A stretch of DNA of 42,643 nucleotides from Solirubrobacteraceae bacterium. Lineage in GTDB: Bacteria; Actinomycetota; Thermoleophilia; Solirubrobacterales; Solirubrobacteraceae. The stretch is taken from contig JBEKRJ010000001.1 of assembly GCA_049518835.1 (NCBI GenBank), positions 1 through 42,643 of the forward strand, given 5' to 3'. Below are positions 35,302 to 38,516 of the stretch, in pieces; positions within the stretch are counted from its first letter, which is position 1, and each line of letters opens with the position of its first letter. The notes below the pieces were generated by a model. That model was not told where the DNA came from and did not search any database. It saw nothing but the letters and a program-made list of their open reading frames with translations. The translations under genes and the position numbers were made by a program.

Positions 35302-35344
35302 GCCGCCGGATGGTCGCACATTGAGCCATCGTAGAATCAAACCG

Positions 35345-35908
35345 ATGGAGGGCTCAACCGAGGTCAAAAGCTGGCTGCGCTGCTACCGATGCTGGTCGCA
35401 GAATCTCGAGGTACAGGTCCATTACGAGGGAATCCATAAGATCGATCCCGACAGCGGCGAACGCGGCGAGGTCGTCGACGAGATGCAGGAGGCGGTCGTG
35501 CAGTGCCTGGAGTGCATGCACGATCAGCCGCACCTGGGCTTTCACAACGGCCGCGTCGAGCCGATCGAGGATCGCTGGGAGCGGATGATCGCAGGGACGC
35601 CGTGGGTCGCCTCGTGCACGGTGACCGTCGAAGCCGACGATGTCGAGACCTGCTCGGGCCCCGAGGCCGGCGATGCGCTCTCCTACGCCGCCTTCGGCGA
35701 CCACGGAACCCGCGAGTTCTTCACGCATGTGCGCTTTCACAAGCACGACGAGGATCGGATCGTCGTCCACCTGCTGGTCGAGCTGTACGCGCGCTCGGCC
35801 GAGGAGGCAACCGAGGTGCTCGAGGAGGCCGCCCGCGGCGCCCTCGCGATCACATCGCTTGCTGAGGAGTCGCGCCCGCCGGCATCGACCGGCGACGGGC
35901 AGCACTGA
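35345..35908 (+). CDS. hypothetical protein with N-terminal zinc ribbon (CxxC...CxxC)
   Basis: CYRC and CLEC about 37 aa apart; acidic C-terminal domain; TAGAAT 7 nt before ATG. Confidence 0.78.
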   Translation: MEGSTEVKSWLRCYRCWSQNLEVQVHYEGIHKIDPDSGERGEVVDEMQEAVVQCLECMHDQPHLGFHNGRVEPIEDRWERMIAGTPWVASCTVTVEADDVETCSGPEAGDALSYAAFGDHGTREFFTHVRFHKHDEDRIVVHLLVELYARSAEEATEVLEEAARGALAITSLAEESRPPASTGDGQH

Positions 35909-36668
35909 CGCGGTACAGCAGCTCCTCGACGATCAGCGCGAGCGCCACCGGAACCGTCGCCGGCAACTCGCTGACCGCTAGGAACAGAAGATCGAACACG
36001 GCCGCGATCGCCAGCGTCAGCAACGCGGCCCGCCACTGGCGCCGGCGGTCGTGCGCGAGCACCGCGCCGAGCAGGCCGGCGACGAACAGGTCGCCGTAGC
36101 CCATCGAGACGGTTCCGAACAGCTCGCTCTGCAGCTGCGGCAGGCCGCCCCCGGGCGCGGCGGCGATCAGCGTCGCGTTCGGCGCCTGCAGCAGGTCGGA
36201 CACGACCAGCCACGTGTCGGCGCCGGCCATCAGCACGATCCCGACCTTCAGCCAGCTCGGCGGCGTGACCGCCGCCAGCAGCACCCCGAGCGTGACGCAG
36301 CTGAGCGCCGACAGCAGCGCCGCGGCTGCCTCGCCAGCGAGCGACGTACGCGCGGCCCAGGCCAGCACGAACAGCCCGATCGCGGCCACGATCGCGACCG
36401 GCCTGGCTCCACGCGCCGCCCAGCCGAGCGCCGCCGCGGCCAGTGGCGGCACCGCGATCAGCGCCAGGTACGTGAGCCCGGTGGCCGTGTCGGACACGTA
36501 CCGGATCGCGAACACGACCAGCACGATCGACGCGATCGGGACCAGCGCCCAGCCACGGCCGCGCAGCCGAGCCGCAGCCGGGACTCGGCCCACGACGCGC
36601 GGCGAAGCGACGACGCCGGCCTGCAGTGCCAGCAGGCCGGCGTCGGATGGGATGAACGCGAGCGCCAC
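35850..36668 (-). CDS. 9-TM membrane protein, putative presenilin/SPP-like (GxGD) intramembrane aspartyl protease
   Basis: Asp151 in the 6th hydrophobic segment, GYGD193 at the start of the 7th, LPAT at the start of the 9th. Confidence 0.6.
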   Translation of the reverse strand: MALAFIPSDAGLLALQAGVVASPRVVGRVPAAARLRGRGWALVPIASIVLVVFAIRYVSDTATGLTYLALIAVPPLAAAALGWAARGARPVAIVAAIGLFVLAWAARTSLAGEAAAALLSALSCVTLGVLLAAVTPPSWLKVGIVLMAGADTWLVVSDLLQAPNATLIAAAPGGGLPQLQSELFGTVSMGYGDLFVAGLLGAVLAHDRRRQWRAALLTLAIAAVFDLLFLAVSELPATVPVALALIVEELLYRVSAARRRSMPAGATPQQAM

Positions 36669-36689
36669 CCCACCAGGGTACGGATGTCG

Positions 36690-38516
36690 CTAGGCGTGCA
36701 GCCTGGCGTCGAGCGCGTCGAGTTGCGCGTGCAGCTCGGCCGGCAGCTTGACGCCGAACTCGGCGTAGTGCTCGTGCATCTGCGGCAGCTGCTGCTTCCA
36801 GCCGTCGACGTCAACCGCGAGCAGCTGCTCCATCGTCGCGGCGCTGATGCCCAGCCCGCTGACGTCGATCCCGCCCTCGCCGGCCTCCGGCAGCAGCCCG
36901 ATCACGCTCTCGACCGCCTCGGCGCGGCCCTGGCAGCGGCGCACGATCCACTCCAGCACGCGCGAGTTCTCGCCGTAGCCGGGCCACATGAACTTCCCGT
37001 CGGCGTCCTTGCGGAACCAGTTGACGTAGAAGATCTTCGGCAGCCTCGCGCCCTCGTGGCGGCCGATCGCGAGCCAGTGGGCGAAGTAGTCAGCCATGTG
37101 GTAGCCGCAGAACGGCAGCATCGCCATCGGGTCCCAGCGCAGCCGCCCGACCCGGCCCGCCGCGGCCGCGGTCGTCTCCGAGGACATCACCGAGCCCAGG
37201 AACACACCGTGCTCCCAGTCGCGCGCCTCGTGGACGAGCGGCACCACCGTCGAGCGTCGGCCGCCGAACAGGATCGCCGAGATCGGCACGCCGTTCGGGT
37301 CCTCCCACTCGTCGGCGATCGACGGGCACTGCGACGCGGGCGTGCTGAAGCGGGCATTGGGGTGCGCCGCGGGCTTGTCGGACGCCGGCGTCCAGTCGTT
37401 GCCGCGCCAGTCGATCGCGTGCGCCGGCGGCTGCTCGGTCAGGCCCTCCCACCACACGTCACCGTCGTCGGTCAGCGCACAGTTGGTGAAGACCGAGTTG
37501 CTGGCGATCGTCGCGATCGCGTTGGGGTTGGTGATCGCGCCGGTGCCGGGCGCGACGCCGAAGAAACCGGCCTCCGGATTGACCGCGTACAGCTGGCCGT
37601 CGGGGCCGAACTTCATCCACGCGATGTCGTCGCCGATCGTCTCCACCTTCCAGTCGGGCAGCGCCGGAATCAGCATCGCGAGGTTGGTCTTGCCGCAGGC
37701 GCTCGGGAACGCCGCCGCCAGATACTTGACGTCACCGTCGGGCGAGGTCACCTTCAGGATCAGCATGTGCTCGGCCAGCCACCCCTCGTCGCGCGCCATC
37801 ACCGACGCGATCCGCAGCGCGAAGCACTTCTTGCCAAGCAGCGCGTTGCCGCCGTAGCCCGAGCCGAAGGACCAGATCTCGCGCGTCTCGGGGAAGTGGA
37901 CGATGTACTTGTTGTCGGCGTTGCACGGCCACGGCACGTCGGACATGCCGTCGGTCAGCGGCATCCCAACCGAGTGCAGGCAGGGGACGTAGTCGCCGTC
38001 CGCGCCCAGCACGTCGAGCGCGGGCTGACCCATCCTCGTCATCACCCGCATCGACGCGGCGACGTACGCGGAGTCGGTCAGCTGCACGCCGATGTAGGCG
38101 ATGTCAGAGCCCAGCGGGCCCATCGAGAACGGCACCACGTACATCGTGCGGCCGCGCATCGAGCCCTCGAACAGCTCCGTCAGCGCGAGCCGCATCTCCT
38201 TGGGCTCGCGCCAGTTGTTGGTCGGCCCGGCGTCGTCGGGGGTCTGCGAGCAGATGAACGTCCGGTCCTCGACCCGCGCGACGTCGTCGGGATCCGACAA
38301 CGCCAGATAGGAGTTGGGCCGCTTGGCATCCGAGAGCCGCTGGAACGTGCCGGCGTCGACGAGCGTCTGCGCCAGCCACTCGCTCTCCTCGGCGGACCCG
38401 TCGCACCAGTGGACTTCGTCGGGTTGCGTGAGCGCAGCGACGTCCTCCACCCATGCCTGCAGGCGCGCATGGGTCGTCGTTGCTTGGTCGCTCGGGGCCG
38501 TGTGAGCCATGTTCAT
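36690..38516 (-). CDS. pckG: phosphoenolpyruvate carboxykinase (GTP)
   Basis: [39 protein letters not shown]; AAGGAG RBS (start 38510 or 38516). Confidence 0.97.

Follow-up and report, generated by a model that had tools for sequence, protein, structure and literature searches.

We analyzed a stretch of 42,643 nucleotides from a soil actinobacterium, Solirubrobacteraceae bacterium (GenBank assembly GCA_049518835.1, contig JBEKRJ010000001.1, positions 1 to 42,643; hereafter the window), in which an open reading frame (ORF) on the reverse strand (35850-36668) with a GTG start codon encodes a hydrophobic, unannotated protein of 272 amino acids. A first-pass annotation had read this product as an intramembrane aspartyl protease resembling presenilin and signal peptide peptidase (SPP; MEROPS family A22). 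On re-reading the sequence, we found the 272-codon ORF, the aspartate D151, the GYGD and LPATVP motifs, and the upstream hexamer TACCCT all at the positions claimed. The features of the gene are given below, with transmembrane (TM) helices numbered as in the structural model.

35850..36668, reverse strand: gene for a 272-amino-acid, nine-helix membrane protein of predicted presenilin/SPP fold (MEROPS A22-like), from the ORF, homologues, model, and selection
36216..36218, reverse strand: codon of D151, predicted first catalytic aspartate, in helix 6 in the context AD, from sequence and conservation
36162..36188, reverse strand: short helix after TM6 (residues 161-169), at a position equivalent to TM6a of presenilin and of the archaeal presenilin homologue PSH, from the model
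36099..36128, reverse strand: beta-hairpin before GxGD (residues 181-190), at a position equivalent to beta1/beta2 of presenilin, from the model
36090..36101, reverse strand: GYGD (residues 190-193), with D193 as predicted second catalytic aspartate, at the start of helix 7, from sequence and conservation
35949..35966, reverse strand: LPATVP (residues 235-240), with P236, equivalent of the PAL motif, ahead of helix 9, from sequence and conservation
36675..36680, reverse strand: TACCCT, a -10-type hexamer 6 nt before the GTG, predicted leaderless promoter, from sequence and conservation

The GC content at third codon positions (GC3) of the ORF is 0.91, and the ratio of nonsynonymous to synonymous substitution (dN/dS), determined by a simple counting method for 80/80 homologous loci, has a median of 0.30 (range 0.22-0.46). 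A word-indexed search returned 5,131 homologues among the 7,998 candidates scored, and none of the best 120 homologues listed carries a Pfam domain, their names being hypothetical or absent; searches of Pfam and NCBIfam with the protein itself gave nothing above cut-off. Throughout, counts over named loci refer to the best 80 (517 of 599 stretches were confirmed), and counts over representatives derive from the best 150 of 540 representatives found at E ≤ 0.001 in a library clustered at 50% identity. We conclude from GC3, dN/dS, the thousands of homologues, and the conserved start and promoter described below that the ORF is a real gene.

An AlphaFold2 model built on an alignment of 124 sequences (predicted local distance difference test score (pLDDT) 94.1, predicted template modeling score 0.90) consists of nine long helices (residues 5-21, 38-57, 60-84, 90-105, 110-134, 137-156, 191-203, 208-228, and 238-259). 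The nine hydrophobic segments of the first-pass annotation are thus recovered as helices in the model but only unevenly by hydropathy, in which the first segment is weak and a crude counter yields 7. When the model was compared with 48,161 chains by VIA-align, four matches had Z ≥ 8, all of them A22 proteins: SPPL2a (9k93; Z 18.1, root mean square deviation 3.6, 238 aligned residues, model residues 5-258), PSH (4hyc; Z 11.0), presenilin-2 (PS2; Z 10.3), and presenilin-1 (PS1; Z 9.6); the next row had a Z of 5.0. A second structural comparison placed 22 A22 entries at Z 10.0-18.1, including presenilin at 17.1 (9k95_B) and 17.0 (6iyc_B) and archaeal PSH at up to 12.3, with the first unrelated row at Z 4.4. 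Further, ranks 1-14 of a Foldseek search were all SPPL2a, gamma-secretase, or PSH (probability 0.97-1.00). That annotation would have yielded to a better match to a transporter, which was not seen, SPPL2a, presenilin, and PSH lying far above any transporter. The 50 fold-match rows listed contain no entry of the prepilin peptidase family A24, a result that speaks for those rows and not for families outside them. In the ESM Atlas, consulted as one further source, the nearest clusters are unannotated clusters from Actinomycetota, followed by the best named cluster, 24% of whose members carry PF04258 (Peptidase_A22B; score 0.91, 211 shared features), and clusters that are mostly from Bathyarchaeota are also near. 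We conclude that, as modeled, the whole-length protein matches presenilin-family structures only.

The model places D151 in the helix spanning residues 137-156 and D193 at helix 7, i.e. in the helices bearing the catalytic aspartates, and the GYGD at residues 190-193 stands where GxGD is expected, at the start of helix 7 adjoining TM6. Between the aspartates, the short helix covers D151+10 to +18, and the strands at residues 181-184 and 187-190 cover D151+30 to +33 and D193-6 to -3, respectively; P236 sits in the loop immediately preceding helix 9. TM6a of PS1 covers D257+11 to +20, beta1 +31 to +33, and beta2 D385-8 to -4 (PMC10290658), and in PSH, TM6a covers D162+9 to +15 and beta2 D220-7 to -3 (PMC9282858, PMC2947513). 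In the model, therefore, what lies between the two aspartates keeps the register of the corresponding presenilin and PSH elements. The same papers report TM6a and the beta elements to be necessary for substrate binding and cleavage (PMC10290658, PMC9282858, PMC2947513), and beta1 and beta2 of presenilin to pair with the substrate (PMC10290658).

D151, D193, and P236 are each present in 119/119 close matches and, among the representatives with a residue in the respective column, in 130/132, 116/122, and 113/116; the 11 deviating rows appear by eye to be frameshifted or misaligned. Both aspartates are intact in 31/31 copies from the genome sample and at 80/80 loci, and P236 is intact in 30/31 and 80/80, respectively. 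The first-pass annotation had made its case depend on both aspartates being conserved among homologues, and they are. Among the 364 membrane ORFs of this genome, a relaxed pattern (Asp...[GDE]xxD...xP[AGS]x), loosened with the paralogue described below already in mind, is found in two, namely this gene and that paralogue.

We next consider what weighs against reading the protein as an A22 protease. The literal YD signature of A22 (PMC2947513) is absent, since no tyrosine precedes D151: residue 150 is alanine here, and among 133 representatives it is alanine in 49, valine in 42, isoleucine in 24, and leucine in 10. The third motif reads PAT and not PAL (A237 in 92/119, threonine as third residue in 93/118), so that YD and PAL, to which the first-pass annotation had likened these motifs, are here AD and PAT. 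At the sequence level, neither PF04258 nor PF06550 has a match in this genome, no A22 Pfam model is among the 25 families shown for the 124 alignment members, and family profiles A2 and A4 found nothing in the PDB at E ≤ 10. The Foldseek E-values are weak (best 0.014), at a TM-score of ~0.5-0.6 and 13-16% identity. Gene content calls for no such enzyme specifically because M50 proteases occur in 22/22 carriers and 22/22 non-carriers and SppA is missing from both groups. Lastly, the GxGD is non-canonical in 22 of 65 members sampled for a quick tree of the family, and bulky residues at the glycines of GxGD virtually abolish gamma-secretase activity (PMC10290658); glycine-replaced clades may therefore be slow, respecified, or inactive. 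The 65 members comprise 43 with GxGD, 15 with GxXD, 2 with DYGD, and 5 with neither glycine, and all keep both aspartates; the copy in the window has the canonical GYGD.

Thirteen of the 15 GxXD members form a GW[LM]D clade (support of 99 in the Shimodaira-Hasegawa-like approximate likelihood ratio test (SH-aLRT)), which comprises L017-L024 and L026-L030 of families f6, f8, and f12 and offers a natural test of the glycine requirement. A distant paralogue in the genome of the window (L031; G000:C5:2899-3735, reverse strand; profile E 3.4e-58) retains the two aspartates as well as LPATVP, has DYPD in place of GxGD, and clusters with two other DYPD proteins; its fold predicted from the single sequence, with no alignment, was uninformative (pLDDT 55).

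Other routes to a sequence-level link gave little. A search of the PDB by sequence returned nothing relevant, PF06550 was above cut-off in 0/201 class genomes, and among the best 120 matches listed, a C-terminal profile search found family members only. A bridge search gave one weak match to PF04258 over 301 phylum genomes and two to PF06550 over 201 class genomes; two of the three are apparently chance (by eye, an ORF like an Nramp transporter, and a low-GC non-gene), and the third is L143. By its sequence, the protein falls outside the curated Pfam families PF04258 and PF06550.

The sole recurring Pfam signal in the family, a further point against the A22 reading, is a sub-threshold match to Peptidase_A24, seen in 6/124 full-length members (best E 0.009) and in 10/24 C-terminal halves (best E 0.0022). 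With the GxGD and the C-terminal proline motif that A24 enzymes also have, it raises the alternative of a divergent A24-type (prepilin/preflagellin) peptidase trimming N-terminal leaders at the cytoplasmic face. For the C-terminal half of the 272-residue protein, however, PF01478 scores 17.6 bits against a cut-off of 26.5, and the signal spans GxGD and the residues beyond it, leaving the first aspartate uncovered. Alignment by hhalign with the genome's own A24 peptidase, a separate bona fide gene (E 1.7e-16), reaches a probability of 7% over 39 columns. The active-site loop, moreover, is predicted to lie outside, and the model has only the short helix and the hairpin between D151 and D193, whereas several TM helices separate the aspartates of prepilin peptidases and FlaK (PMC2947513). 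Taken together, these results make an A24-type enzyme very improbable. A22 and A24 belong to one clan, and the A24 signal reads as GxGD context common to it. The first-pass annotation had held that motifs distinguish the two families; the genome's own A24 peptidase does have GxGDxK (GMGDVK), but it also ends in a C-terminal proline motif (IPFGP) at similar spacing, and because of this the two families are not told apart by motifs alone as sharply as had been claimed. Unlike the motifs, the predicted fold does distinguish A22 from A24. The lack of a match to any curated family might also suit an ORF that is not a gene, or motifs that arose by chance within a generic membrane protein or transporter. 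Against this stand purifying selection, the GC3, the thousands of homologues, the conserved start and promoter, the rarity of the motif pattern among the membrane ORFs, and a best non-A22 fold match at Z 5.0 compared with 18.1; the fold, conservation, and selection results already refute this reading, to which we assign practically no probability.

In the genome's own A24 gene (L141:1246-2118, reverse strand; G000:C617), we note that the last C-terminal segment of ~38 residues is tandemly duplicated, which may be genuine or an assembly artefact.

To orient the protein in the membrane, we set loop limits from the model and counted 16 lysine and arginine residues in loops 1-2, 3-4, 5-6, and 7-8 and the C-terminal tail, compared with 2 in the remaining loops; the direction of this bias is the same in 35/35 aligned rows (one frameshifted). 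Under the positive-inside rule, by which loops rich in lysine and arginine are cytoplasmic, the protein very probably has the SPP-type orientation, computed as N terminus and 6-7 loop outside and C terminus inside. SPP and SPPL proteases are N-out and cut type II substrates, and presenilin is the opposite (PMC7768045). The SPP orientation therefore predicts type II substrates, e.g. signal-peptide remnants, and is what we chiefly add to the earlier reading of the sequence.

The best 80 loci belong to Solirubrobacterales, Solirubrobacteraceae, Conexibacteraceae, or unclassified Actinomycetota/Actinomycetes and include Conexibacter sp. DBS9H8 (L123); the order is placed in class Thermoleophilia. 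Profile matches occur in at least 30 of 201 class genomes, and in the two nearest families the carriers are 8/13 and 5/17 genomes. A genome search within the phylum was positive in 4/151 genomes, all 4 in the class, and in 0/140 outside it. Because 22/22 negative genomes were again negative on re-search, the gene is dispensable. We conclude that the family is large, patchy, and, in the genome searches within the phylum, found only in Thermoleophilia. Two genes flank the protease gene in the window:

36690..38516, reverse strand: pckG (GTP-dependent phosphoenolpyruvate (PEP) carboxykinase), upstream neighbour, syntenic in close relatives only and not part of the system
35342..35908, forward strand: gene for a 188-amino-acid unannotated protein with two CxxC pairs, convergent downstream neighbour, not a partner

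Each of them is present at 77/80 of the closest loci. The neighbours differ across 21 wider regions of diverse carriers (the gene caller recovered the gene in 19), and by eye, from N-terminal sequences and without a family scan, we found no recurring substrate-like or regulatory neighbour in the 21 regions. The CxxC gene was considered as a partner and rejected because it is present in protease-lacking genomes (34/34 genomes of the order, including 20 non-carriers). The CxxC protein, which has no Pfam or NCBIfam match, is 64-95% identical across the 34/34 genomes and was not found with this query in 12/12 other class genomes; its gene seems core and order-specific and at the 3' end shares ~59 nt with the protease gene. 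We also considered whether the protease replaces a known enzyme. Replacement of RseP is rejected, M50 proteases being present in 44/44 genomes, and replacement of SppA is not discriminating, since S49 is missing from carriers and non-carriers alike (S49/SppA in 1/46 class genomes, a weak match, compared with 11/14 control genomes). The class appears to be largely without SppA, a common signal-peptide hydrolase.

Upstream of the gene, a TANNNT word lies 5-8 nt ahead of the start in 65 of the 75 relatives (of 80) in which the start could be placed, compared with 0.5% of 20,000 random positions, the control being random DNA and not the starts of other genes; a Shine-Dalgarno-like word is found in 2/75. 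The -10 box fixes the start and supports a promoter, yet it is unremarkable given the random-DNA control and because leaderless genes are common in Actinomycetota. A consensus promoter scan detected no -35/-10 pair. As no terminator was found between pckG and the gene, read-through may contribute to its expression; the leaderless promoter of its own that the first-pass annotation proposed is upheld as far as the conserved box goes, with read-through from pckG, 21 nt upstream, as another possible source of transcript. Among contigs from four RNA runs of one study, which leave much of the gene uncovered and do not allow levels to be ranked, one 241-nt metatranscriptome contig (run X1, depth 3.4) is identical to 36291-36531 with zero differences and may be DNA carry-over.

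Overall, the protein is almost certainly a presenilin/SPP homologue, and we consider it probable that it is a stand-alone SPP-oriented aspartyl protease predicted to be active. It is likely, judging from the modeled structure, a member of the A22 fold that works like SPP or PSH without the literal YD and PAL signatures. The A22-like intramembrane protease of the first-pass annotation thus gains support from the conserved aspartates and the fold matches. In the mechanism we propose, helices 6 and 7 would carry D151 and D193, with the TM6a-like helix (161-169) and the beta-hairpin (181-190) between them and LPATVP before helix 9. By analogy with the chemistry of presenilin, PSH, and SPP, an N-in/C-out substrate helix would enter the protein, unwind at its outer end, and pair there with the backbone of LPAT and with the hairpin; the aspartate pair would activate water for a cut near the outer leaflet. 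The biological job, the weakest step of this proposal, would be low-level membrane housekeeping overlapping that of the M50 (RseP-type) proteases. We put the chances at about even that the predicted protease is active with a mainly housekeeping role, clearing signal-peptide remnants and type II stubs; this role is preferred because of indirect signs, namely that the promoter is plain, that no partner gene was seen, and that SppA is scarce. Bacteria degrade signal peptides using SppA and RseP (PMC9360617).

The same enzyme in the same orientation may instead be dedicated, cutting one or a few type II proteins (an anti-sigma factor, sensor, peptide precursor, or surface protein) so that a signal or mature product is released, as SPPL2 and SPPL3 do. 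Its patchy and dispensable range in the two nearest families and the confirmed negatives would fit such a role, the paralogues and motif-shifted clades suggest specialization, and M50 proteases already cover signal-peptide clearing in every genome compared; on the other side, the 21 regions gave no recurring substrate-like or regulatory neighbour by eye, the neighbours conserved in close relatives are pckG and the gene for a soluble CxxC protein, whose occurrence does not depend on the protease, and the promoter amounts to an ordinary conserved -10 box. We regard the dedicated role as possible but not favoured. The protein could also have the presenilin fold without protease activity, as a pseudo-protease, scaffold, or peptide or ion conduit whose aspartates would have a binding or structural function. 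The loss of the YD tyrosine, PAT in place of PAL, the subclades in which GxGD is replaced by GW[LM]D, DYPD, or E[YW]AD, and the absence of a sequence match to A22 models all point that way, but the GYGD is intact here, GxGD is kept by the majority of sampled members (43/65), neither aspartate is lost from any genome-sample copy or locus, and the TM6a helix and hairpin are kept in register in the model, which leaves a non-catalytic protein unlikely. More boldly, and only tentatively, we suggest that soil Thermoleophilia may have their own active A22 branch, too diverged for standard models to find, that it may carry out regulated intramembrane proteolysis of an aspartyl type on type II proteins alongside RseP, and that the subclades retaining both aspartates without the GxGD glycines (GW[LM]D, DYPD) may show the chemistry not to need GxGD, YD, and PAL strictly.

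We compared the predicted SPP-like protease with known systems. The best structural match, SPPL2a (A22B, PF04258; 9k92/9k93), covers the whole TM domain over 238 residues at Z 18.1, and the likeness to SPP and SPPL extends to nine helices, an aspartate in TM6, GxGD at TM7, a proline motif before TM9, and the predicted N-out/C-in orientation. It differs from them in being bacterial, in its ~12-14% identity, in having no PF04258 match, and in having AD for YD and PAT for PAL; the match begins at SPPL2a residue 168, and the 272-residue protein is without a counterpart of the N-terminal part of SPPL2a. The presenilins (PS1 and PS2, A22A, catalytic subunit of gamma-secretase) resemble it in fold (Z 17.1/17.0) and in the register of TM6a and beta1/beta2, whereas their predicted orientation is opposite and the aspartates are 128 residues apart in PS1 compared with 42 here; we saw no sign of partner subunits, although none were specifically searched for. 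PSH/MCMJR1 of Methanoculleus marisnigri (4hyc/4hyg/4y6k; PF06550) is likewise a prokaryotic GxGD protein that stands alone, has nine helices, and is similar in size (Z 11.0-12.3 over ~215 residues), and its physiological substrate is given as unknown in PMC2947513; PSH, however, has YD and proven activity, whereas the present family misses PF06550 and is known from sequence and model. A24/FlaK enzymes (PF01478) resemble it in the GxGD aspartate, the C-terminal proline motif, and the weak sub-threshold profile matches and differ in that here no lysine follows GxGDx, no TM helices lie between the aspartates, and the predicted site faces outward.

Work on presenilin/SPP proteases has covered eukaryotes and one or two archaea. 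A22 homologues are not in themselves new to bacteria: Raut, Glass, and Lieberman (2021) are said to have predicted A22 homologues from sequence in Candidate Phyla Radiation (CPR) bacteria, which reportedly keep YD...GxGD and were found by ordinary homology search. By that account, those proteins differ from the present family, whose hosts are free-living Actinomycetota of soil and which the A22 Pfam models fail to detect. In the literature searched, from which subscription papers were mostly absent, we found neither a characterized A22 protease from a bacterium nor any mention of this family. A review of bacterial regulated proteolysis gives eukaryotic presenilin as the sole A22 example (PMC7593790). 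The "bacterial presenilin" in a lipid review (PMC8396450) is a passing phrase that probably means PSH, and TmcP of the TMcin pathway is an unrelated S2P metalloprotease (PMC13712780). If correct, the proposed activity would give bacteria an aspartyl intramembrane protease for signal-peptide turnover or signaling, provide a 272-residue, probably cofactor-free small scaffold for work on the gamma-secretase/SPP mechanism, and yield naturally varied forms of each of the three signature motifs from abundant soil bacteria. The complete, named genome of Conexibacter sp. DBS9H8 contains a relative, which makes the proposal testable. Its significance is limited in that neither the fold nor the chemistry is new, homologues in bacteria were already predicted, and no substrate or pathway can be seen.

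Finally, we note several features of individual family members. Six longer forms (P0188, P0271, P0272, P0273, P0274, and P0275) carry trypsin, PEP carboxykinase, Tim44 (twice), phosphodiesterase, and no identified domain; these fusions were set aside as a guide to function, being sporadic and possibly read-through from assembly errors. At L045 and L048 (family f8), the gene lies within a glycolysis-type cluster, adjoining a metallophosphoesterase-like gene, with a gene resembling an extracytoplasmic function sigma factor a few genes away (both assignments by eye). L041 and L042 (family f2, DYGD variants), from two related genomes, both adjoin the same three-gene cluster of membrane proteins. 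Two near-identical copies with a branch length of 0 (L037 and L012; G073:C3:851313-852089 and 869796-870569) lie ~18 kb apart and, being placed among Solirubrobacterales sequences in the genome of another order, suggest recent transfer and duplication.

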